Translations under genes and position numbers: made by a program
Shown here: one piece after another, positions 3,613 through 50,654 of the stretch
Layout: every line of letters starts with the position of its first letter
How positions within the stretch are numbered: the first letter of the stretch is position 1
Source: a virus
Direction: 5' to 3' (one strand)
Length of the DNA stretch: 64,000 nt
Virus record (IMG/VR): IMGVR_UViG_3300045988_079349
Notes under the pieces: model-generated
What the model saw: the letters and a program-made list of their open reading frames with translations, nothing else
Databases searched by the model: none
What the model was told of the DNA's origin: nothing

Positions 3613-3891
3613 TTATTCCTCACTTAAATTATATCCAATAAGTTTCATAGAAGGGTTTATCAATCGCAATAATGTTTCTGCTTCATCTATTACAATCTTA
3701 TCCTTCATTCCTCTGCTGTGATTTAAATATTCTGAATAATTCATAAATCTAAGTCCAATAATTCCATAACTTTCCGCTTTACTTCTCATTGAGTGAGGGT
3801 TACTACATACGAATATAGCATTATTATCCTTAGCGTATTGCATTAACTGATAAGTTTTTCCAGTGCATCTATCACCAATAATTCTAAACAT
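3613..3891 (-). CDS. hypothetical protein
   Basis: 92 aa ORF, ATG overlaps upstream stop (TTAATG). Confidence 0.5.
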   Translation of the reverse strand: MFRIIGDRCTGKTYQLMQYAKDNNAIFVCSNPHSMRSKAESYGIIGLRFMNYSEYLNHSRGMKDKIVIDEAETLLRLINPSMKLIGYNLSEE

Positions 3892-4802
3892 TAAGCTCCT
3901 CCTTTAGTTCCATTAAGACCTAATTCTTTAGTCTTATAGAACTCAATCCAATAGGTTTCTCTCTCGTTTAGTTTGTCTCTGGTTACTTCTTCTAAGACTT
4001 CAAACACGAAATTATGAACTCCAGATTTCTGCATAGCAGAGTATAACTTATTAGTTACCTTTCCATAGGTTAAAGCAGATTTAATATGCTATCTAAATCG
4101 TTCTTTTATATCAACCGATTGTCCAATATAGGACTTGCCTGTAGTTAAATCAGTTATTCTATAGATACCGCAATATTTAACTGCCTTGGGAAACAAATGG
4201 GCCATTAAAATATCATAAGCTGGCTTATAATATACTTCCCATATTAGTTTATCTATACTTTCTTTCTTTACAAATCTTGGTTGTAATTCGCGCAATAACG
4301 TAATATCATTAATATCTATTTCATCAAGAGCAAGACGATAATAATCTTGATTAGAGTCAATTTCTTCCTATCTCTATTTGGCCTAAATATAGGAAAGCTA
4401 CTTAGCCTATAAATCAGCTAATTTCCCGGCTTCAATAGAAATTTTCTTTAGCAAATCTTGATTTTTAGCATCAAAAGTCAAAGAAAGTTCCTATTCTTTT
4501 TCTTTGTAGGATTTTACAAGTGCGGAGACGCGTGCCTAATAGGCTTCATCAGCTTGTTTCTAAGCACTTTCCCGCATTTCTTCCTAAGATTTTAATAAAG
4601 AAGAAAGAATATCGTTCTCAAATGTTATATTATTTTTTATGTTAGATAACACTTCTCTATTATGTGCTATTTCTTTTTCTATTTCAGCGTTTTTTCTTTG
4701 ATTATCTGTGTTAATCTAAACTACTTCAAGGGTTTGCTTTTTGAGATAATAGATATAAATTATTAACCCGATTATAGCTATTAATAATAATCCTATAATC
4801 AT
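3891..4802 (-). CDS. GIY-YIG endonuclease domain fused to an N-terminal TM helix and Gln-rich coiled coil (11 TAG codons)
   Basis: Verified codon by codon: no TAA/TGA in frame from ATG 4800-4802 to TAA 3891-3893; C-terminus YRITDL...KSYIGQS...KERFRQH...NGTKGG is a GIY-YIG fold; N-terminus MIIGLLLIAIIGLIIYIYY is a TM segment. Confidence 0.6.
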
Positions 4803-12009: not shown

Positions 12010-13419
12010 TTAAAGTCCTAGCTTTTCCGCCAATCTTCTAATCATAGTTACTGTTTCTAATCTAGTACAGAATTTGTTTGGCATCATTCTTCCAGCGCTG
12101 TCGCCGGCCATAATTCCATTTGTCTTAGCCCATTCGAGATTATCGGAACCCCATGTCTCTTTTTCATTAGCTTTATTGGTTAGCCAAGTATTCATAAATT
12201 CAGCGAATTTTTCATCAGTCATATCTTCATCATCCTCCTAAACATTTGACATTAAATTGTAAGCATCTGTTCTTGCTGTTTCCATGCTTTTTCCAAATTT
12301 TGGAAACCAGTGGTTTACATCTGCATGATTAGAGCCTAATCCTAACTTATGGCTATCAGCATGACATAAAATAGTTGGGACGGTAATACCGTTCAAGGTA
12401 GTTGTTCCTAATGGATTTATATTATACATCTTGCATAAGTAAGCAGTAATCTAACAAGCCTCTTCATAAATCTTATTAAAATAGTCTGCATCATTTAATC
12501 CATCTTCGCAAATTTCAAATTGAATCCATCCATTATTGCAAGAGCCTTTAGTTCCAGAACCACATCCCCAAGGACGATAATTCCATGGCATTGTCTATAT
12601 TGTTGTTACTGTTCCATCTGCTAGCTTGCCAATCCAGCAATTTAGCCCAGCTTGAATAGATACATGATTCCAGTCATTTTTACTTGTATTCTTTCCTATT
12701 TTACTTATTAAAGTATTATAGTTGGGATCATTATCGCTAGGTTGAACATATCTTTTTAAATTAGGATTATTCGCGCCTGTACTATGCCATAAAATTCCTT
12801 TAACTTGCATAGTGCGTGTCTATTTATAGCAAGTGCTATTAGTCATCATGCATTGAAGTGGTTTATTGCTATCACTATATTTCATTTTATTACCTCCTTC
12901 AACTATATTTGAAATGTTAGCAAATTTATTATAATACTATTGACCATAACTTGTTCTCTTTTGTTGAACATAAACGCTCTAATCCGCAGGTTTTTCAAAC
13001 TAGAGCAGTACTGCTGTAGATGCTGCTTCAACAGAAACGACAGAAATTAAAATATTAACTAAAGAAGAAAAACTTGTAATTAGCTCCTAATATAAAAAAT
13101 CTAATTGAGTGTTTAAATCTCCAATGGATCTTCCACGATTTTGACAGAACTAAAGCAGATTTTGTTTTCTACTCCAGAATGTCCATTGAGCTAGACCATA
13201 ACCAGCCCCGTCTTTTACAAAGTTTTTGTATCTTCCATCATCAACAGCGGAGGTATATTCAGAATCAGTCATCTTTAACTTTTTTTCATATGAGTTCTAT
13301 AAATTAGTTGGACTAAGACCGCTTTCTGCGTAAAGATTGCCCATTAGACCCGCGATTCCGCAATCACTAAATCCTTTTGATTTAAAATAATTCCAAATTG
13401 TTTGTGCATTATCAGCCAC
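12010..13419 (-). CDS. endolysin: N-terminal phage tail-lysozyme-like domain + C-terminal N-acetylmuramoyl-L-alanine amidase (Amidase_2) (9 TAG codons)
   Basis: ORF-track fragments 12010..12222, 12238..12429, 12595..12810 share one frame; verified no TAA/TGA between GTG start (~13419, RBS AAAGGAGGG) and TAA at 12010; motifs GIAGLMGNLYAESGL (tail lysozyme) and WHSTGAN...CHADSH (amidase). Confidence 0.65.
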
Positions 13420-15051: not shown

Positions 15052-15462
15052 CTAATTTCTTAAATAGGCTTTTAAATCTTTTTTCTCTTTCTTTAGGGCT
15101 GCGGAAAGCGCGTCAATTCTTTTTTCAATACGCATTATAGCTTGATAAAGATTTCCAGTAGGGTCAACTTCCGCAGGAGATAACTTCCCATACTTTGTTA
15201 CCTCTTGATACAGGTTATTTCTATGTTTTAACTCTGTTTTAGCAGACTTTAATTCATATTTTAATATAGCAATTCTTGCTTTTGATATTGCAATAGTTTT
15301 ACCTACACCTCTAGCAAAAAAACCTCTATCTTTTTCTGATAGTTGGGCACGACCGCCAAAGATAATTCCATTATATGATATATTTATTATAGTACATCCT
15401 ACAAATGGTTCTACAAGCTCATAAACTATTGGAGCATTATATATAGCTTTTACTACACTCAT
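15052..15462 (-). CDS. hypothetical protein
   Basis: 136 aa ORF; preceded by conserved 60-nt element. Confidence 0.45.
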   Translation of the reverse strand: MSVVKAIYNAPIVYELVEPFVGCTIINISYNGIIFGGRAQLSEKDRGFFARGVGKTIAISKARIAILKYELKSAKTELKHRNNLYQEVTKYGKLSPAEVDPTGNLYQAIMRIEKRIDALSAALKKEKKDLKAYLRN

Positions 15463-15536
15463 TAAATATCCCCTAATCTTTTAAATCTTTTATATTAAAA
15501 TTATACTATTTATTTATAGAAAAATCAATATTTGTA

Positions 15537-15600
15537 GTATTTTGAAAGAAAAATTTGGTGGGTACGCGCGATCGGAAACTCGGAGCAGGACGAGGCTAGC
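15537..15600 (-). promoter_or_regulatory. conserved GC-rich 60-nt element, copy A (second copy at 42230..42289)
   Basis: 57 of 60 nt identical to copy B; lies between a terminator and the next gene start on the minus strand. Confidence 0.4.
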
Positions 15601-15610
15601 CATAAAAAGA

Positions 15611-15639
15611 AACCCTCCAGATTAAGAATCTGGAGGGTT
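15611..15639 (-). terminator. rho-independent terminator after SPFH gene
   Basis: aaccctccagatt/aatctggagggtt hairpin followed by T-run on minus strand. Confidence 0.55.
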
Positions 15640-16543: not shown

Positions 16544-16696
16544 TTATTTATTTTCCTTTCTTCCAATTCCTAAGTTCTTCTTGGTTTTATAATAAACTTT
16601 AATGAAGAATTTTCCAATCTTTCTAAATGTAAAATTTAACAAAAACCATAGAGCAACAAGAGCTAATACAACTAAAATCCAGAAAATAGGATTCAT
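16544..16696 (-). CDS. small membrane protein upstream partner of SPFH protein (NfeD-like?)
   Basis: 50 aa ORF ATGA-overlapping the stop of the upstream gene; one TM helix. Confidence 0.3.
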   Translation of the reverse strand: MNPIFWILVVLALVALWFLLNFTFRKIGKFFIKVYYKTKKNLGIGRKENK

Positions 16697-17256
16697 AGCA
16701 TATCAACGCACTCCTTTACCTTTAGTTTCATTTCATCAATAACTGCATCAAGAGAAACTGGATAACAGCTATGTGAATCAACTCCTACATGATACATATA
16801 GGGTCTATCCTCATAAAAATCAGATTTTTGATGCGTATGACCGTAGAGATTAAGCATCATTTCATGGAGACTCTCTTTTTCAAGATTTCCAGTTAAAGTT
16901 GGAAAATGAGACATATAGAAATGATATTTTTTGTAGTTAAGACTAAGCGCCCATGCAGTTTCAACTACATTCGGCAACTCTGCATACATTTGCCGACGTT
17001 TAGGTGTATCATGATTTCCAAAAACCACATGAAGTTTTCCATTCATAGAACTAATAAGTTCTCTGCTTTTCTCAAGGCTTTCTGCCCCACCTAAACATAA
17101 ATCTCCAAGAATATATACATCATCTTCTGAGGTTACAAGAGAGTTGTGCCGTTCAACAAGAGCACTATTCATTTCCTCAGCAGAATCAAATCCGCGAGGT
17201 TTATAGATAAACTCTTTCGAATGATTAAAGTGCCAATCTGAAGTTAGAAAAATCAT
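16693..17256 (-). CDS. calcineurin-like metallophosphoesterase
   Basis: DWHFNH...GDLCLGG...GNHD motifs. Confidence 0.7.
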   Translation of the reverse strand: MIFLTSDWHFNHSKEFIYKPRGFDSAEEMNSALVERHNSLVTSEDDVYILGDLCLGGAESLEKSRELISSMNGKLHVVFGNHDTPKRRQMYAELPNVVETAWALSLNYKKYHFYMSHFPTLTGNLEKESLHEMMLNLYGHTHQKSDFYEDRPYMYHVGVDSHSCYPVSLDAVIDEMKLKVKECVDML

Positions 17257-17262
17257 GTTTTA

Positions 17263-17784
17263 TCACTCCATTCCATGATGATTAATTCTTACTTCTTTAA
17301 ATCCGTACTTATAAAGTTCAAATTCTGCGGGAGTGGGAGATCTATAGTTTCTAGCCATCTTCCTAATTGCGGACTCTGGGACTTGAGAAAATCCTTCTCT
17401 CAAGCTATTGCGAGCGATACAGGTATCAATCCCGCAATCGCAAACTTCGAAGACAAGTCTTGTTTTTCCGTCCGGCCGCAGTCTACCCAATAGCTTTGCT
17501 CTTGATCCTTGGGAAATATGAGTTGCGTCAACAAAGACGTAATCAATTCCGATTTCGAGACATTCGTTAATCTGACGGACAAATTCTTCGAATACATCAT
17601 TCTCTTTTCCGAAGTAACTTCCATCACCAACGAAAGATTTTCTTATCTCGTCACGGGAGATAATAGCAGTATGAAAACCATCCATTTCAAGCAACTCAGC
17701 TTCTTTATGCGCCCAAGTAGATTTTCCACTACCGGGGATACCGACCATAACTTTTACTTCAATAGTCATACTGCTTTCCTCCAT
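17263..17784 (-). CDS. P-loop polynucleotide kinase-like protein (AAA_33)
   Basis: GIPGSGKST Walker A; adjacent to phosphoesterase, a CthPnkp-like kinase/phosphatase arrangement. Confidence 0.6.
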   Translation of the reverse strand: MEESSMTIEVKVMVGIPGSGKSTWAHKEAELLEMDGFHTAIISRDEIRKSFVGDGSYFGKENDVFEEFVRQINECLEIGIDYVFVDATHISQGSRAKLLGRLRPDGKTRLVFEVCDCGIDTCIARNSLREGFSQVPESAIRKMARNYRSPTPAEFELYKYGFKEVRINHHGME

Positions 17785-17785
17785 T

Positions 17786-17833
17786 CATTTAACTTTCTAT
17801 AAATATTATAATATATTTTTTATAAAATATCAA
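17786..17833 (-). promoter_or_regulatory. sigma70-like promoter with conserved downstream block (class 2)
   Basis: minus strand TTGATA-17nt-TATAAT followed by ATTTATAGAAAGTT about 25 nt before the ATG; one of about 17 similar copies. Confidence 0.5.
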
Positions 17834-17845
17834 AAGATTTTTATT

Positions 17846-18733
17846 TTAAATCTCAACTGGTTGAATTAGTTCTTCAATATAAGTCCTACCTTCATCTTTG
17901 AATAGAGGAATATTAAGGTCAATAAACCAATAGTGTTTAAAATGAATTGAGCCATCTTCTCTTTCCGTTTCTTCGCAGTCTTTTATACAACAAGAACCTC
18001 TCTTCAAATAGGTCGGTAGACTATTCCAATCTATCCCCTTTTTGGAAATAAGCATCTCTAAAATTTCACTACTGCACTTACCCTGAAGTTCACTATGAGA
18101 AAAATTTGCTTGACCAACCATTTGAATAGAATTGCGAATGGCATCTAACTGTCGCCAGTAAATGAGATTTGTTACCTCTTCTTTTGGGATATTAAAAACA
18201 CGTGCATCAAACATAGCACCTTTTGCGCTTGCCATCCGTAAAGTTTTCATATATTCTTGATGTTTCTGTCGGATTTCTACACTTTGCGGAGTTAGAGAAC
18301 ACTTCCAATCAACTTCGTATGCTTCAATCGCTCGATGAAAAGCTTTATTAAAAGCCATTGTCGCCATAGATGCTGCAACAGAGCACATCTTTTGAACTTC
18401 GTAGTCAAACCACGCTTCACTATTTAATTTCTTGTAATCAACAAGAATTAGAGTTATTTCATCACTTTGTGTATATCCAAGAACACATCCTTGAATATTT
18501 CTGCACAAATACTCTGTAGTTTCTTGCATAGCTTCAACTAACACTTCGTCAAATGGTTTTTTAAATCCTTTAGTGAAGGTATGAAATGCTTTTCCATCAA
18601 TTCTAATTGCTACTGGAGTTCTGCGCATGAGGCGAGTTTTAGGTACCTGTTCATAAAACTCCTTCATACGAGTATCAAGTTGGTCATTCATACTGTTTAT
18701 CCTCCATATCAACCATAAAAATATGCTCGTCAA
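17846..18733 (-). CDS. Thg1-like protein (tRNA-His guanylyltransferase family / tRNA 5-prime end repair)
   Basis: RIDGKAFHTF and GYTQSDEITL resemble Thg1 motifs (RLDGRNFH, AYGQSDEYS). Confidence 0.55.
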   Translation of the reverse strand: MTSIFLWLIWRINSMNDQLDTRMKEFYEQVPKTRLMRRTPVAIRIDGKAFHTFTKGFKKPFDEVLVEAMQETTEYLCRNIQGCVLGYTQSDEITLILVDYKKLNSEAWFDYEVQKMCSVAASMATMAFNKAFHRAIEAYEVDWKCSLTPQSVEIRQKHQEYMKTLRMASAKGAMFDARVFNIPKEEVTNLIYWRQLDAIRNSIQMVGQANFSHSELQGKCSSEILEMLISKKGIDWNSLPTYLKRGSCCIKDCEETEREDGSIHFKHYWFIDLNIPLFKDEGRTYIEELIQPVEI

Positions 18734-19418
18734 AGGTATCGAGATTTAAGAGAACGGTTTGTCCAGTAAAGAAACTGCCACAATCAATATTTACCTTATG
18801 GTCATTGCAGTACCAAAAAGCACCCTCAACATAAGAGTCTTCTCTCGCTCCAAAGAAATTTTTTAGACTTCCTCTATAGCCTCTAATCATACCGGGGATA
18901 GGAGTATGTCCATGAACACAGATAGTATTATTTTCATAGTAAGTATCCCAAATATGTTCTCTATCCCAGATTAAATCTCTTGTATTTGGATTAGAACCTG
19001 CTGTAAGCCCTGCATGACAAAGAGCTATTTTAACATCGTCTTTATTGCAGTATTCCATATAAGTAGGTAACTTACTTAAATAATTACACCAATCAGGGTT
19101 CGCACCATCACTTATCCAACCTTCAAAGGTGTCTTTCCCTCCATTAAAACAAAGCAAAGCACAATCTCTGTCGAAACATTCATACTTCGCATATTCTCTC
19201 ATTGCATTGACAAGCATATCTTCGTGATTACCCTTGATGTAGATAAATTGCGGATCTGCGGCAACTGCTTTAATGGTTTCCCAAGGATCAGGTCCCCGAT
19301 CGCCGCAATCGCCCAGGCAATAAACTTTATCTTCTGGTTTTAAAAATTTCTTTACCTCTTGATAAAGACATAACATACCATGAAGATCACTAATAGCGTA
19401 TACGCTCACTTTAATCAC
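18684..19418 (-). CDS. Ser/Thr phosphatase-family metallophosphoesterase
   Basis: GDCGDRGP and GNHE motifs (lambda phosphatase-like). Confidence 0.7.
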   Translation of the reverse strand: MIKVSVYAISDLHGMLCLYQEVKKFLKPEDKVYCLGDCGDRGPDPWETIKAVAADPQFIYIKGNHEDMLVNAMREYAKYECFDRDCALLCFNGGKDTFEGWISDGANPDWCNYLSKLPTYMEYCNKDDVKIALCHAGLTAGSNPNTRDLIWDREHIWDTYYENNTICVHGHTPIPGMIRGYRGSLKNFFGAREDSYVEGAFWYCNDHKVNIDCGSFFTGQTVLLNLDTFDEHIFMVDMEDKQYE

Positions 19419-19481
19419 TTCCTTTATTATATTATACCATAATAAAATATAAAAATAAAGAGAGCGTAAAGCTCTCTTTAT

Positions 19482-20204
19482 TTAAAAGAAGGGACAGATT
19501 GGCATTTCCTCTGTTTTATGTAGGTTTCTCTTGTGTCTCTGCTCAATATTTTTATATACTTCATACGGAGGAGTAATACGATATAGCAAAAAGTTATCAA
19601 GAGTTTTATAAGAAAAACCTAGATTCTCTTCATCTGAGAGTCCAGTTAATCCATCTTCTGGAACTTTTTCTATAAATTTCTCCGGTAGACCAAGTTCTAA
19701 ACCAATCTCTTTAACTTCTGTTACTGTGTAATTGTGCAGAATTGAAAAATCTCCCGCGGAATCACCAAATTTGGTTGAATAACCAACATAATTTTCACTT
19801 CTATTACAAGTGTTTGCAACTCTACCATGTCGAGCAGCCGCGATGGCATAAAGAATATTCATTCTTTCTCTTGCTGGAACGTTACTTACAACTTGAGGAA
19901 GATTACGAATATCAGAGGGTAGGGAGAAAAAAGTTGCTTTGCAAGCCTCTCCAATGTTGATATTATAATGTTCTTTAATGCCTAGATACTCAATAACTTC
20001 ATTTGAAATATCAATGTCTGATTGATACCCTTGTGGCATTTGAACTGCAATTACATTTTCTGGCCCAATAGCTTTACAAAGCAGTGCGGCAGCGACAGTA
20101 GAATCTTTTCCTCCAGAAATACCAATAACAGCTTTGCAGTCCGGGCCGTTGTCGATAAAATATTTTTTAATCCAGTTAATGATTCTTTGAACTCTTATTG
20201 TCAT
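19482..20204 (-). CDS. nadE: NH3-dependent NAD+ synthetase
   Basis: PP-loop GISGGKDST. Confidence 0.85.
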   Translation of the reverse strand: MTIRVQRIINWIKKYFIDNGPDCKAVIGISGGKDSTVAAALLCKAIGPENVIAVQMPQGYQSDIDISNEVIEYLGIKEHYNINIGEACKATFFSLPSDIRNLPQVVSNVPARERMNILYAIAAARHGRVANTCNRSENYVGYSTKFGDSAGDFSILHNYTVTEVKEIGLELGLPEKFIEKVPEDGLTGLSDEENLGFSYKTLDNFLLYRITPPYEVYKNIEQRHKRNLHKTEEMPICPFF

Positions 20205-20209
20205 AAGAT

Positions 20210-40206: not shown

Positions 40207-41271
40207 TTACTTTCCAATTACAACTTTATGATCTTCGGTTGGATCAATAGATGCAGGTTGATATACAAATACATCGTAAGGAACTGCGGTGAATCCATTT
40301 GCTCCTTCTACCTGTACTGGCTCGGATTGTTTTACATAACTAGAAGTTACGTCAGCATTTAGACTTGAAGTAATATTCGCTGCGGTTACTTTAAGTCCGG
40401 AAGATTGAGGTACAGCAATAATAATTCTCTTTGTTCCTTCTTGAGCCTTAATGCTATTGATAGTCATTGCGGCTGCTGCTTTATTGCTAGAAGTAAGAGA
40501 ACGAATAATCGCGCTAGTTAGAGCATCTGTTGAATCATTAATTCCGTAGAAGATCTAACGGTATCCAGTAATAGTTCCTGTGCTATTAGCTTTTGATCCT
40601 GCCTTAATTTGTCCATCTACATATTCTGAACCTAAATTAGTCACAGGAATAGCTCCATCAGCATAGGTAGCTGTTGCTGTAATCTTTAGATTTGTAGAAT
40701 CAGTTACTTGAATTTCAGAGAATGTGCCGCTAGCTTCAGTTTTTGATTCTTCATTAAATTGAACGTTCCAACTGCTTGCAGTAATTCCTGTATCTGGACC
40801 GTACTGATAAGAGCCTTTATTCAAGGTGGCTGTATATTTTGGAGTTACATTAGTACCAGCCTCATATGCTTTCATCTCTCCAGAAGATACACTAACTGAG
40901 GGTTGTACGATAGTTGGGTTTTTCTCTTCGGCGAAAGCATCTAGTAATAACTGATCTAAAGTTTTTCCTGTTGCTGGCACATTTACGGAACCATCTCCGC
41001 CAGGAGTATATTTACCAAAAGCATAAGTAAAGGTAAAATCATCATCAAACTTAACAATAGATGAATCGACTTCAACTATATCTTTTCCTCCAGAGTATTC
41101 TAATTGGCCCCATGTACTCTCTCCATCACCATATTTTACCTTGCCCTTATCAGGGCCATCTGTTGTTAGACAGGCCTCGCCAATAAGAGGTACAAGGGTA
41201 TCTTTTACTAATTGCCAATTTGCATCTGTGTCATGTCGAAGCTGTATTCTAGTTTTCAGTTCATTGGCCAT
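40207..41271 (-). CDS. tail fibre protein (1 TAG codon)
   Basis: Fragments 40207..40467 and 40555..41271 in one frame, separated only by TAG; N-terminal conserved motif RIQLRHDTDANW...KYGDGESTWGQLEY. Confidence 0.6.
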
Positions 41272-41872: not shown

Positions 41873-42130
41873 TTAGCCAATTAATCCGCCATCATAAATA
41901 ATGGTTGTATCTTCTGGCGGAAGGGGCTGATCTCCGCCTCCATTAGAAGGCTACAATATCCATTCATGATTAGAATTGAAGATGTATCTATTTCCATTTT
42001 CAATTACATAGGCTGAGCTACCTGGCTTACGATTAGTAGGGAGATTAGCAACGTCACTTTGGTAGTCGCACAAAAAATGAACTGTGCCGTATAAGACTTT
42101 ATTATCTACATTCTTACCAACAGTAATCAT
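41873..42130 (-). CDS. small hypothetical beta-rich protein (1 TAG)
   Basis: about 85 aa from RBS-ATG at 42130. Confidence 0.4.
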
Positions 42131-42229
42131 ACTTATTCTCCTTTCTTTAAAGAGTAGAGAAAATTATCTCTCTTTATACTATATAACAATAATGACAAAA
42201 GGTTTTACATAAATTGTCCAAAGCATATT

Positions 42230-42289
42230 TTTGAAAGAAAAATTTGGTGGGCATGCGCGATCGGAAACTCGGAGCAGGACGAGGCTAAC
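42230..42289 (-). promoter_or_regulatory. conserved GC-rich 60-nt element, copy B
   Basis: Near-identical to 15537..15600; directly follows a terminator (42294..42322) on the minus strand and precedes gene 41873..42130 by about 95 nt. Confidence 0.4.
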
Positions 42290-42293
42290 AGAA

Positions 42294-42322
42294 AAGAGGG
42301 GCTACCTATTTGGTAGCCCCTC
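42294..42322 (-). terminator. rho-independent terminator
   Basis: gaggggctacc/ggtagcccctc hairpin followed by TTTTCTG on minus strand. Confidence 0.55.
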
Positions 42323-42406
42323 TAGGGGATTGGAATTTTGCAGAACTCCAATCATACATATTACATTTATAAATGAAATATATATAAACACCGCTGCAAC
42401 AGTGGA

Positions 42407-42482
42407 TGGTTGCAGACATGGGAGTTGAACCCATTCCTCAAGCCTTATGAGGGCTGCGACTTAACCGTTTGTCCTGTCTGCA
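42407..42482 (-). tRNA. tRNA with anticodon CAU (Met or Ile2)
   Basis: Acceptor TGCAGAC/GTCTGCA, loop CTCATAA, T-arm ATGGGTTCAACTCCCAT; anticodon stem has one mismatch. Confidence 0.45.
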
Positions 42483-43642: not shown

Positions 43643-44215
43643 TACATACTTCCTTTCCTATTGTTTGGTGGGCCAGGAGGGAATCGCACCCACTCGAGCT
43701 CGGAAGCACCGGTTTTTGGAGTTAAATCTTAGATTCGAACTAAGTATTTACTGGTATCCAATTTACAATTTGGGGCACTGGTTGTTCTCAAAGTTATTGA
43801 TTTTACATTTCCAGCTTGAATCAAATCGTTCATTGGAATTACAAACATATTCATATCTTGATTAGCGCAAAACAACAAGTCTAAAGGATGGTTAAGTATC
43901 GAATCATAAACATTTCCTTTAGTTCCACCTGCGGATTTTAGATTAATTTCTCCAGTTTTCGATGATGTAAATTTGCACTAAACTGTTTGGAAAACTCCAT
44001 CTTTTTCAATAACTAAATCATACCATTGAGTATCATTCAGTGGGACTGATACAGTGTATCCATTAGAACCAAAGTATCCTATTGCTAAAGATAGACCAGC
44101 ATTTCCTTTCTACTGATTGTTTGTAATGACCATTAATATCCTCCTAAGTAGGAATTTAACACAGACCGGGGTGTCTACTTTATCACTTTACTGACCCATA
44201 TATAAAAGAATTGTT

Positions 44216-44387: not shown

Positions 44388-44504
44388 CGGGGAGTGCAGG
44401 ACTCGAACCTGCGACATCGTGCACCCAAAGCAAGTTAAAGATTGCTGTTACGGTCTTTAACAAGACCAAACTATAACGCGCTCTACCAACTGAGCTAACT
44501 CCCC
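44388..44504 (-). tRNA. tRNA-like gene of about 117 nt with a roughly 40-nt insertion between D-arm and T-arm
   Basis: Perfect acceptor GGGGAGT/ACTCCCC, canonical D-arm TAGCTCAGTTGGTAGAGC and T-arm GCAGGTTCGAGTCCTGC, but the intervening region contains an extra hairpin GGTCTTgttaAAGACC. Confidence 0.4.
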
Positions 44505-45479: not shown

Positions 45480-45727
45480 CTTTCTATAAATATTATATCA
45501 TTTATTTTTAATATTTTCAAAAGTTTCTAAAGACTAGACTCAAAAGGGCTTGCCCCATATGCTCAACATTTTCTTGGCTTCCCTTCAAAAAGAAAATGCT
45601 TCTTAGCTTTCTAAATAAGATTTATTTAGTAAAATCTTTTTATACAAGTATATTTGCATATATTTGCTGTATTGAGTCTATATATATAGGAAAGGAGTGA
45701 TACATATTCTCGCTCCCTAAGAGCGAG

Positions 45728-47202: not shown

Positions 47203-47721
47203 ATTAATTCCTCCACATATGTTATATATGGAGCCGAATTGGGTTTCGATTATCCACCACTTTCTTTTTAAGAGAAGAAAGAAACTCTTGGTGGAGATGA
47301 CGGAGAGTCGCACTCCGTGTCCGAAATAACTACATAACTAGAATATTATTACACGATAGTTTCACTTTAAACTTTTATAAATGGAGTTTTAGCTGAAACT
47401 ACTAATAACCATAGAGCAGTACCAGTTGTACTCTGCCTCCACCACTCTATTTAATTAAAGGCAAATAGAGAAATCCAAGGGATTAAAACAGCGAGCTATG
47501 CTCAAGCTGCGATATTACTAGAAAAATAATCGTTGTCGTTTAATTTTGTTGCCCCTTAAGGCGGTATGCCTACCCGTGTATTCTAGTTTCTCATTACCCC
47601 GTCGAACCTACGCATCCCCATATAGTGACCCTCTATCTATTGCAGAAAGAATCGAACTCTAGACTCTATAGCCATAGAGGGTCTTTTGTAATGAAATTAA
47701 AATGTCTGCCGATTTCTCGGC

Positions 47722-49088: not shown

Positions 49089-49834
49089 TTATATCTTTGA
49101 CCACATTTCATCAGAATATTTCTTAATATCAGACTTGCGATAAGGTAAATCGTAGGCTTTGCACCATTTTTTAATGGTGTTATCAGAAACAGAAAAATTT
49201 TTTCCTATACTCACAAAAGTTTCTGCCCTAATCATATCTTTTAAGACTTCTCTACTCGGTCTTTCACACTTTTGTTGTCTAATATGGTCACAGACAGAAC
49301 ATCTAATCGCTCCCTTGGAAATTTCTTTTCCGCAATCAACGCAATAATAATGCTATTTTGTTACATCCTTTACCTTGCGTAATGGATACTATTCACCTTC
49401 AATAGTATGATAATCACCACGATTGAGATAATAAACCATACTTAAGTCTAAACCATATTTCTCACTAATTTGTGAAAAAGATAGCTCAGATTTTTTAATA
49501 TCTTGAATAATGCTATTCAAGATTTCTGGTGTATATCTCTTAAAAACTTGGTTCTATGAACTACCGCCAGATGTAATATTATACCCATTGGGAGTAATTG
49601 AATTATACTTTTGAATATAGAATTTTTCTCTTGTATCTAAAAGATACTCTGGGCATTCTTCAATAATGGAAAAAGCAAAATTATCTTTTCCTTCTCGTTG
49701 AATTGCCTATCCAATTAGCGAATTACTACGACAATGTTCTGTAAAACGCTTTTCGATATGGAGGCTCTAACCCACATATACTTTACCATCAGTCAGATTT
49801 TCAATTTTATAAATACCAATAGACAAGTCTTTCA
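49089..49834 (-). pseudogene. GIY-YIG homing endonuclease with zinc finger + HTH C-terminus; carries a +1 frameshift near 49755 and several TAG codons
   Basis: N-terminal frame MKDLSIGIYKIDKIENLTDGKVYVGQSLHIEKRFT switches frame before EHCRSNSLIGQ...; one extra A in cgttttacaAgaacat. Both frames verified against sequence. Confidence 0.5.
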
Positions 49835-50144
49835 TCTCCTCTACTATATTTACAATTTTGAACCGACTCTTTAATGAAATGCACCCAAAATTTTTCTTAA
49901 ACTAATGAAACGAAGACTGACGTGCTAGCCGCTGACACTAATCCTGCATATTAGTGGTGGTTTTTCCCTTACAACAGGATCGAACCACCAAACCCATCAT
50001 AAGAGGTGTTCCTCATACTTTCACGCCCATAGGAACCACAAAGCCTGTGCGCCGCTTCTGCTCTTAGAGTTTACATCTTGAAACCCTGTCAAAGAAGCAG
50101 TAACCGTCCTCTAAAAGTCACCTCTACGCAAAGCGAGAGTATAG

Positions 50145-50602: not shown

Positions 50603-50654
50603 TAAAACTCAAACATCCTTTCCTTAACTTTCTATATATATTATATAATAAATA

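Follow-up and report, generated by a model that had tools for sequence, protein, structure and literature searches.

The window, which is the whole stretch of 64,000 nucleotides analysed from the virus record IMGVR_UViG_3300045988_079349, carries a non-coding DNA element in two copies. This two-copy element is real and lineage-restricted, and its function is probably regulatory. The explanation preferred here, tentatively and as possible rather than probable, is that the element is a bipartite DNA site for a regulatory protein, which was duplicated so that two operons share control. The element falls in no described family and is, in kind, an ordinary duplicated phage intergenic control sequence.

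Detection of the two copies

The positions of the two copies in the window are as follows.
42229 to 42292, minus strand: copy B of the element, delimited by a probe, the repeat finder and the alignment of relatives; it is made of a variable 5' edge, block 1, a 19-nt spacer with a variable patch, and block 2
15540 to 15603, minus strand: copy A of the element, the ancestral copy, delimited by the probe, the repeat finder and relatives

The copies lie in direct orientation 26.7 kb apart and are identical at 58 of 64 positions, an in-register identity of 0.91; over a 61-nt core there are 3 mismatches, and the differences between copies A and B are T/C, C/T and G/A. A 44-nt probe from copy B, scanned over the whole window with up to 3 mismatches, matched only two sites, 15557-15600 and 42246-42289, while none of 100 shuffled sequences gave a match. 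The repeat finder paired 15540-15609 with 42229-42298 (family D13). No third copy of the GC-rich part of the element was found in a window scan at 55% identity or above, and neither conserved block recurs elsewhere in the window above chance.

The flanks of the two copies were compared in 100-nt bins. The two bins at lower coordinates had identities of 0.27 and 0.35, and the two at higher coordinates 0.33 and 0.21. The first-pass annotation had described copy B as the second copy of a conserved element, with flanks unrelated to copy A and hence no segmental duplication. The second copy is borne out by the probe and the repeat finder, and its coordinates were correct; the flank identities of 21-35% agree with unrelated surroundings, and a comparison of the flanks, for which a dot-plot had been suggested as the check on a segmental duplication, showed no extended homology.

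Genomic context of the two loci

The window is A/T-rich (37% GC) and comes from a large phage with genes almost all on the minus strand, the coding strand of the genome being G-rich. It carries 30 tRNA genes and a tmRNA, together with RNA-repair and NAD-salvage genes. One AAA ATPase shares 44% identity with its counterparts in Bacillus Bastille-like Herelleviridae, and the phage is, as judged from sequence comparison, distantly related to Herelleviridae. The presence of an amber-suppressor tRNA, and of many long frames interrupted by in-frame TAG, suggests that TAG is recoded.

At both loci the order along transcription is the same: upstream gene, terminator, element, 75-100 nt of A/T-rich DNA and next gene. 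The element begins 9-13 nt past the U-tract of the terminator in each case. The features around copy B are as follows.
42407 to 42482, minus strand: tRNA-Met (CAT), the gene upstream of copy B
42295 to 42323, minus strand: intrinsic terminator of the tRNA-Met unit, directly 5' of copy B, with 12 pairs of which 8 are G-C; its sequence is not common to copy A
42173 to 42178, minus strand: candidate -10 hexamer TATAAA of the gene downstream of copy B, read by eye; it is kept in clade 2 (see below) and has a poor -35
41873 to 42130, minus strand: gene downstream of copy B, 85 aa with read-through of the TAG at 41951-41953

The hairpin at 42323-42295 has its T-run on the minus strand only and therefore terminates the upstream minus-strand unit (tRNA-Met). 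It had been annotated at 42294 to 42322 as an upstream terminator; the hairpin is real, is placed here at 42295-42323, and is upstream in the sense of minus-strand transcription. The gene that had been given at 41873 to 42130 is an open frame only with read-through of the in-frame TAG at 41951-41953, which is plausible as the phage carries an amber-suppressor tRNA. This gene is followed by tail-fibre-like genes with Mtd_N domains.

The features around copy A are as follows.
15611 to 15639, minus strand: intrinsic terminator of the SPFH/Band-7 gene, 5' of copy A, unrelated to the copy-B terminator
15500 to 15528, minus strand: sigma-A-type promoter of the 136-aa / PIN-PhoH operon, TTGATT-17-TATAAT, near-invariant in five lineages; the others have TGATATAAT
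15052 to 15462, minus strand: gene downstream of copy A, 136 aa, without a family match

The 136-aa protein was predicted to fold as a three-stranded sheet with a long helical hairpin (pLDDT 86). Comparison of the model with PDB folds gave nothing significant (best E = 0.13) and no recognisable DNA-binding fold was seen, and its candidacy as a DNA-binding autoregulator was rejected on these grounds.

The promoter of copy A follows the pattern TTGATT-17-T(G)ATATAAT across lineages. In each of the five copy-A lineages, 16-17 nt separate the element sequence TTTTTCTT from the -35 hexamer downstream, and the A/T tract of copy A falls at about -63 to -47. The promoter of copy B is uncertain. If the conserved TATAAA at 42178-42173 is used, the A/T tract of copy B would fall at about -79 to -63 and the element would stand about 16 nt farther from the start than copy A. 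The alternative promoter TGGACA-17-TGTCAT, read by eye, would give a spacing like that of copy A, but its -10 T is lost in clade 2. Between copies A and B, neither the terminators nor the core promoters are related. The copy-A promoter also differs from the main promoter family of the phage, which comprises at least 14 sigma-A promoters of the type TTGAAA-17-TATAAT-ATTTATAGAAAG, and the element was absent from all of these.

Both downstream operons hold TAG-recoded genes, namely an endolysin with 10 in-frame TAGs and the tail-fibre-like genes. Recoding of this kind has reportedly been linked to late expression by Borges and co-workers in 2022, which would make it compatible with shared temporal control.

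Architecture of the element

Read along the minus strand, the element consists of a variable 5' edge (GYTRKCC...), block 1, the 19-nt spacer and block 2. The two invariant blocks are YTCCGARTTTCCG (block 1) and TTTTTCTT(T)CAAA (block 2), the full pattern of block 2 across copies being (A/T)TTTTTCTT(T)CAAA(A). The distance between the blocks is exactly 19 nt in 11 of 11 distinct copies, while the centre of the spacer varies freely. The parts of the two copies are as follows.
42262 to 42274, minus strand: block 1 of copy B, CTCCGAGTTTCCG, the same in all copies except in one lineage with TTCCGAATTTCCG
42246 to 42255, minus strand: variable patch in the copy-B spacer, CATGCCCACC, found by comparing the copies
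42229 to 42245, minus strand: block 2 of copy B with the A/T tract AAATTTTTCTTTCAAAA, identical across all clade 1 and clade 2 copies
15573 to 15585, minus strand: block 1 of copy A
15540 to 15556, minus strand: block 2 of copy A

The spacer patch reads CGTACCCACC in copy A of the window and CAGGCTCAYC, CAGGCCCACC, CAGCCACAGC or TAGGCCCAGC in relatives. Block 2 carries a 1-nt deletion in the L163/L167 lineage. No dyad symmetry was found in the element.

Distribution among related phages

In pattern scans and protein-anchored searches, the element turned up in no more than a narrow group of metagenomic phages. Clade 1 is formed by the window, IMG/VR 3300045988_075249, OGGG01000034 and OGNP01000003, with 98-99.5% DNA identity; clade 2 is formed by 081499, 084596, 080502 and others at about 80% DNA identity. 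Copies A and B occupy the same two loci in clades 1 and 2. Every contig long enough to include both loci gave exactly two element matches, which lie about 23 kb apart in contig 075249. Copy A was also present upstream of orthologues of the 136-aa gene in three lineages of greater divergence, L162, L163/L167 and L164/L165, where the neighbouring protein is 57-76% identical.

The copy-B locus gave a different picture. Relatives with an ATPase 67-69% identical have no element there, though the tRNA-Met, the terminator and the downstream gene are the same. In clade 3 (64%) the locus has a different GC-rich block, which has no nhmmer similarity to the element and occurs once according to a 19-mer scan. 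A homologous element at the distant clades' copy-B locus was thus rejected, the clade 3 block showing no detectable relation to it and the 67-69% clade having none. Since copy A occurs in five lineages and copy B in the two closest clades only, copy A is ancestral and copy B is a later insertion that arose in the ancestor shared by clades 1 and 2.

A search of a phage collection with the element returned nothing, and in a plasmid collection only the A/T-rich flank was matched, and weakly. When 185,579 species genomes were scanned for exact matches to a 20-mer and a degenerate 23-mer of the core, none was found, so the element is not an obvious host sequence or CRISPR repeat. The matches of the metagenome scan in L003-L008 were rejected as chance matches to unrelated GC-rich sequence. 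All carriers of the element belong to a single group of uncultivated Herelleviridae-like phages.

Sequence evolution of the two copies

In clade 1 both copies carry GTCCTG and CCGATCG, and in clade 2 both copies (copy A of the 081499 type) carry GTTCTG and CCGTTCG; the outgroup copies have CCGT(T/G)CG. Own-type copies A and B of one genome differ at 0-3 positions in a 53-nt core, compared with 6-7 between orthologues of the two clades. As own-type copies are more alike than their orthologues, gene conversion is pointed to; the pattern of substitutions indicates gene conversion, or co-selection, over the core. The outer 5' edge of the element follows orthology, unlike the core.

In contig 084596 a copy B of clade 2 occurs together with a copy A of the L163 type, and the two have about 12 differences. 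When this contig was compared with 081499, homology was lost over the SPFH gene and was back no farther than about 10 nt from the element's 5' edge, so that the junction at copy A reads as a mosaic junction. Around copy A, the window and L009 differ over 2.7 kb at three adjacent bases (15563-15565, TAC to CCT), and five changes at 15558-15565 are the sole differences between the window and L001 in about 1.3 kb. The substitutions cluster in the variable patch.

Between clades 1 and 2 the identity is 83-89% for the element, 78-87% for its flanks, 82-87% for neighbouring intergenic DNA and 64-85% for coding DNA. The intergenic region of copy A is better conserved (82-83%) than the coding sequence downstream, the 136-aa gene being 64% identical between these clades. 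As the element is no better conserved between clades than its flanks, the similarity of A and B alone does not prove selection; the blocks and spacing fixed over five copy-A lineages give, from the alignments, the better argument for constraint. The first-pass annotation had reasoned that conservation of the core only argues for function, and half of this reasoning is supported. The part that stands is the retention of the blocks and the 19-nt spacing in the five copy-A lineages. The other part is weakened by the between-clade identities (element 83-89%, flanks 78-87%) and by the shared clade-specific substitutions, through which gene conversion could explain the A-B likeness instead of selection. 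It is weakened further by the standing of copy B as a lineage-specific insertion: because it is absent at the locus in more distant relatives, a function of its own is not required.

Copy B could on this basis be functionless, that is, a fragment of copy A inserted by illegitimate or microhomology-mediated recombination and kept alike by gene conversion, its only effect being 60 bp of homology for recombination as in the PeSLs discussed below. This explanation is somewhat unlikely. It accords with the locus in the 67-69% clade and in clade 3, where promoters work without the element, with the clade-specific changes shared by own-type copies (GTCCTG/CGATCG in clade 1, GTTCTG/CGTTCG in clade 2), and with the element being no better conserved between clades than the flanks. 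Both ends of the repeat lie in T-rich or A-rich runs, homology between 084596 and 081499 resumes about 10 nt from the 5' edge, and PeSLs are documented exchange points (PMC4122927). However, both blocks and their exact spacing are kept in every sampled clade-1 and clade-2 genome, and close relatives show two point changes only, the 5' edge aside, where neutral DNA of this size (60 bp) in a compact intergenic region should have decayed or been lost. The duplicated piece is moreover precisely the conserved upstream blocks of copy A and not a random stretch.

Coding and RNA alternatives

The window was searched with Rfam at the gathering threshold, which returned only the tRNAs and the tmRNA. With permissive E-values, copy B and a relative's copy A gave matches only to the neighbouring terminator hairpins, leaving the core uncovered. 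RNAalifold of 11 distinct copies predicted 6 pairs on the minus strand (-3.1 kcal/mol, covariation term -0.19) and 4 pairs on the plus strand (-4.4 kcal/mol, covariation term -0.05). The low z-scores of single-sequence folding were due to the terminator hairpin alone. A structured RNA was rejected, since Rfam, the single-sequence folds and RNAalifold on both strands show only the neighbouring terminators. The paired changes G42259A and C42285T in copy B of relatives do not amount to covariation, as the neighbouring bases cannot pair. A hammerhead-like 'UGAUGAG...GAAAC' in L001 was dismissed because the required bases are missing from the window copies and Rfam gave no match.

No tRNA was found at the element by ARAGORN or Rfam, nor any T-stem pairing by inspection. 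The tRNA-like 3' end (...GCCCACCA, 'CCACCA') is part of the variable patch; a 99%-identical relative has ...GCTCATCA there. A tRNA 3' fragment serving as attachment site was likewise rejected, the T-arm, the acceptor stem and the conserved 3' CCA being absent.

A small ORF was rejected on either strand, as the frame is not conserved. The plus-strand frame starting at TTG (MKEKFGG...) has no Shine-Dalgarno, the 1-nt deletion of block 2 in L163/L167 shifts it, and most substitutions in it are non-synonymous when the frames are read by hand. By-eye comparison with promoter types (sigma-54, ECF, sigma-B, sigma-D, SPO1 middle and late, T4 MotA box) gave none that fits all copies, and the likeness to CodY, Spo0A, DnaA and Chi-like motifs is partial or lies inside the variable patch. 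The proximity of Mtd_N genes brought up a DGR repeat, which was rejected because the A-B differences T/C, C/T and G/A do not follow a template/variable pattern at adenines; the 130-nt repeat that the tail-fibre genes contain is a paralogous domain with substitutions of every type.

The boxA of Firmicute rRNA leaders is UGUUCUUUGAAAA, and block 2 (UUUUCUUUCAAAA) was likened to it. The element might act in cis as RNA on minus-strand read-through transcripts, with block 2 as a boxA-like site or a NusG pause site (TTNTTT), or with the unstructured, C-rich GC part as a Rho rut site that reinforces the terminator, which is distinctly improbable. The sense orientation of both copies, starting 9-13 nt after the terminator U-tract, would suit such a role. 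The minus-strand RNA is C-rich (about 21 C against 10 G in the 44-nt block by hand count) and predicted to be unstructured, in contrast to the G-rich coding strand of the genome, and a search of the window with a relaxed boxA pattern found the two copies and nothing else. Against this, the element follows strong terminators and, at copy A, precedes the promoter, and most neighbouring transcripts would be without it. The boxA-like match is of low complexity, lacks the conserved G of boxA and represents one independent event; chance alone would give 0.43 matches, and two or more occurred in 5 of 100 shuffles. Rut sites are, besides, normally not conserved base for base.

The paired sites nutL/nutR and putL/putR of lambdoid phages act in cis in antitermination; they lie downstream of promoters and upstream of the terminators that are overridden, and they carry hairpins (boxB, put stems). 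The element resembles them in being two short conserved non-coding copies per genome with unrelated flanks, and in the boxA-like run of block 2. It differs in lying after a terminator and, for copy A, before a promoter, and in having no conserved structure. An antitermination site of the nut/put type was rejected, as the position is wrong, no hairpin lies inside the element and the boxA-like match is not significant.

Phages are described to encode RNA anti-CRISPRs, which are solitary repeat units, and viral sgRNA/scaRNA (bioRxiv 10.64898/2026.06.01.729453). The element shares with these a short phage non-coding repeat with an invariant block beside a variable stretch; it lacks a CRISPR-repeat match in the scanned genomes, a stem, a tracrRNA tail and a promoter or terminator in the proper orientation. 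A plus-strand small RNA or RNA decoy of this kind (Racr, viral scaRNA/sgRNA), with a scaffold of about 35 nt and the patch as guide or seed, is highly improbable. The features in its favour are the variable 9-10 nt patch beside an invariant GC-rich block of about 35 nt, a strong hairpin 3' on the plus strand, the clustering of substitutions in the patch in the L009 and L001 comparisons, two conserved GGA motifs in the plus-strand RNA, and the occurrence of such RNAs in phages. However, no conserved promoter was seen on the plus strand, the hairpins are followed by T-runs on the minus strand only, and there is neither a repeat/anti-repeat stem nor a conserved structure. The exact 20-mer and 23-mer scans of the 185,579 species genomes were empty, no anti-CRISPR genes were seen among the annotated neighbours, and the window holds no complement of 11 nt or longer to the GC block as an antisense target. 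A CRISPR-repeat mimic (Racr) or scaRNA/sgRNA was rejected on the orientation of promoter and terminator, the missing stem and the empty genome scans, which would register exact matches in the sampled genomes but not a diverged repeat or a host outside them.

Replication and recombination alternatives

Long terminal repeats are a feature of Herelleviridae, and for SPO1 two origins are reported. The phage being distantly related to this family, the element could be a replication, packaging or recombination site, with the copies marking two origins, the boundary of a long terminal repeat, or the ends of a 23-27 kb segment. This is very unlikely. Consistent with it are exactly two directly oriented copies per genome (26.7 kb apart in the window, about 23 kb in 075249), an accessory island of RNA-repair, NAD-salvage and tail-fibre-like genes in the segment between them, and concerted evolution, which shows that the copies recombine. 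However, a terminal repeat of about 20% of the genome with tail-fibre genes would be unprecedented, and the copies are internal to the long contigs of relatives. The element has no iterons and no dyad, and the cumulative GC skew has no inflection at either copy; an origin signal in the skew was accordingly rejected. A pair of recombination sites (att, dif, res) was also rejected, because the patch differs at 2-4 positions between the copies of one genome, unlike matching crossover cores; inverted arms were absent from the element, and no recombinase was seen among the annotated neighbouring genes.

Comparison with known control sequences

PeSLs are composite terminator/promoter cassettes of T4-like phages (Arbiol et al. 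2010; Comeau et al. 2014, PMC4122927). The present loci are alike in being repeated intergenic DNA of a large lytic phage with a stem-loop terminator, an A/T-rich stretch, a promoter, a Shine-Dalgarno and a start codon, and may be alike in lying at junctions of module exchange between related genomes, one example having been seen (084596/081499, at the terminator/element junction of copy A). They differ in that a PeSL repeats the stem-loop and promoter in many copies, whereas the element repeats, in two copies, only the 61 bp in between, with the GC-rich block included. The closer analogue of PeSLs in this phage is the set of at least 14 sigma-A promoters without the element.

The p4 sites of phi29 are upstream activator sites of Bacillus-phage promoters. 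The UP element consensus is reportedly AAAWWTWTTTTNNNAAA, as attributed to Estrem and co-workers in 1998. The A/T tract AAATTTTTCTTTCAAAA of block 2 resembles this consensus and, for copy A, keeps a constant distance from the -35; upstream of it, in the usual place of activator binding, there is another conserved block. Unlike a UP element, the tract is about 5 nt farther upstream than canonical in copy A and probably much farther in copy B; every base of it is conserved, and a GC-rich block always accompanies it at a constant distance of 19 bp. Nothing comparable is present at the other strong promoters of the phage.

Proposed regulatory role

The bipartite recognition site would consist of block 1, YTCCGARTTTCCG, and the A/T tract of block 2, TTTTTCTTTCAAAA, separated by exactly 19 bp. 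A regulatory protein of the phage or the host may bind it, with the alpha subunit of RNA polymerase possibly helping on the A/T tract; the binding and its effect on transcription are what we infer. The site would have arisen as copy A, among the control sequences of the 136-aa / PIN-PhoH / endolysin operon, between the terminator and a strong sigma-A promoter. In the common ancestor of the two clades the 61-bp piece may have been copied to the equivalent position before the tail-fibre-like operon (copy B), which would bring both operons under the same control, and recombination between the copies would since then keep them nearly identical.

A protein-recognised DNA site fits best because primary sequence is conserved independently of sense, the distance between the two blocks is rigid, no RNA fold is seen, and the element sits after a terminator. 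The fixed distance of copy A before a conserved promoter, and the minus-strand terminator before both copies, are compatible features. Other observations count against it. The adjacent 136-aa protein lacks a recognisable DNA-binding fold; the element has no dyad symmetry and is, between clades, no more conserved than its flanks. The A/T tract of copy A lies about half a helical turn upstream of the canonical UP position, and the two copies of 084596, with their differences at about 12 positions, show that the sites need not match. If TATAAA is the -10, the copy-B element is about 16 nt farther away, and a strictly position-dependent activation, such as that by a classical UP element, could not apply to the two copies alike.

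It is also conceivable, though rather unlikely, that the two blocks with a free spacer are the site of a phage-encoded factor (an alternative sigma, an activator or an origin-binding protein) governing a two-member regulon of PhoH/endolysin and tail fibre. The copies would be matched by gene conversion, and the whole would form a small late-control circuit, confined to this lineage, in a TAG-recoded Herelleviridae-like gut phage.

Biological significance

The scope of the finding is narrow, as it concerns a handful of closely related metagenomic phages, and current understanding is not challenged. Should the element be no more than a duplicate maintained by gene conversion, it still illustrates how short stretches of intergenic homology act as exchange points in these phages. 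If it is a regulatory site, it would mark two operons of an uncultivated, stop-codon-recoded phage group as co-controlled, one with PIN-PhoH and the TAG-rich endolysin and the other with the tail-fibre-like genes, and the fixed-spacing bipartite site could be used as bait for finding the putative binding factor. It would then be a clean example of the growth of a regulon by the copying of 60 bp of upstream DNA.

Sequence variation at the two copies of the element

The two copies of the 61-nt non-coding core were compared with their counterparts in related phage contigs. At copy A, the sole differences from L009 in 2.7 kb were three adjacent substitutions at 15563-15565 (TAC to CCT), and L001 differed by five changes in 8 nt (15558-15565). 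Such tight clustering against both relatives is suggestive of a mutational event spanning several bases, or of patch conversion, and not of independent point mutations. At copy B, the loop of the terminator (42307-42311) reads TATTT in the window and AAATA in the related loci L002, L010 and L012, all with an identical stem. As the loop is inverted while the stem is unchanged among close relatives, the difference is, judged on sequence, a signature of hairpin-mediated inversion. An imperfect inverted repeat was also identified by eye.

42185-42215, minus strand, TGGACAA-N15-TTGTCAT, downstream of copy B and ahead of the candidate -10

When read by eye, its arms were found to be kept in clade 2 (about 80% identical DNA) with a different spacer, and because the arms are conserved despite the spacer change, the repeat is a possible operator peculiar to the copy-B locus. 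In the clade-3 contigs (L017-L029, ATPase 64% identical), the copy-B-equivalent position, roughly 230-330 nt downstream of the ATPase gene, is occupied by a conserved GC-rich block of different sequence, GGACCGCGCTCGGTGCAAACGCAAAGTGGCTTTAGAATTTTTCAGGCCAAAT, which follows the terminator. This block occurs once per contig and has a AATTTTTC run at its end, as does the copy-B-type element; it may be a control element analogous but unrelated to copy B.

Main promoter family

At least 14 sites of the main phage promoter family were found on the minus strand of the window, with the following examples.

17805-17833, minus strand, main-family promoter
45492-45520, minus strand, main-family promoter
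50640-50668, minus strand, main-family promoter
54875-54903, minus strand, main-family promoter
56165-56193, minus strand, main-family promoter

The layout runs from TTGAAA/TTGACA through a 17-nt A-rich spacer, (TG)nTATAAT and a conserved ATTTATAGAAAGTT box to the Shine-Dalgarno sequence and start codon, and is similar to that of the PeSL cassettes (composite terminator/promoter cassettes) of T4-like phages. The spacer of the copy-A promoter includes TTTCTATAAAT, which is the downstream box of this family in reverse complement.

RNA-repair and NAD-salvage island

The region between copy A and copy B was found to hold an island of RNA-repair and NAD-salvage genes.

16693-35111, RNA-repair and NAD-salvage island
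30773-33208, 811-aa protein carrying shoulder and repeat domains of the Major Vault Protein
33588-35111, 507-aa DUF2828/DUF7788 protein, labelled 'RNA-binding protein' in PHROGs

Its other products comprise metallophosphoesterases, a polynucleotide-kinase-like protein, a tRNA-His guanylyltransferase (Thg1-like), an RlaP nucleotidyltransferase and an RNA ligase, along with NAMPT, NAD synthetase and PRPP synthetase. A vault-like protein is unusual in a phage.

tRNA and tmRNA genes

ARAGORN placed 30 minus-strand tRNA genes between 35241 and 55153, several of which are missing from the Rfam list. The 117-nt tRNA called by Rfam at 44388-44504, absent from the ARAGORN output, possibly contains an insert.

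47289-47619, tmRNA (Rfam)
43662-43715, minus strand, GC-rich tRNA-like 3' fragment (...GTGGGTGCGATTCCCTCCTGGCCCACCAAA), a short way upstream of the ATPase start (43642)

No tRNA was called by ARAGORN or Rfam at the latter fragment; a GTTCGAATC-like piece lies about 40 nt farther upstream, and the 10-mer GCCCACCAAA that the fragment has in common with copy B is within chance expectation.

Tail-fibre repeat and probable TAG recoding

Two adjoining tail-fibre-like Mtd_N genes contain a direct repeat.

38036-38165 and 39533-39662, 130-nt direct repeat, 75% identical

A template/variable pair of a DGR was ruled out since substitutions of every type are present, and the repeat is a paralogous domain (...EGKVYNIIDEFTTT.DFVEGAG...). 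Tail-fibre-like genes are likewise among the many long minus-strand frames that are open solely with TAG read through.

36133-36207, amber-suppressor tRNA, anticodon CTA
12010-13344, minus strand, TAG-containing frame
3891-4802, minus strand, TAG-containing frame
49089-50000, minus strand, TAG-containing frame
24132-25004, minus strand, TAG-containing frame
56278-57225, minus strand, TAG-containing frame
37652-41271, minus strand, TAG-containing frames
41873-42130, minus strand, TAG-containing frame

The amidase-type endolysin has 10 in-frame TAGs, and its orthologue in the relative L164 is predicted as one 465-aa gene. Reading by eye revealed GIY-YIG motifs in two TAG-interrupted frames, Cys motifs with many repeats in two further frames (6-11 TAGs apiece), and ThyX-like and RecA-like frames; those with GIY-YIG motifs and the repeat-rich Cys-motif frames are putative homing endonucleases. 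The suppressor tRNA together with the number of frames that depend on read-through points to TAG recoding in this phage.
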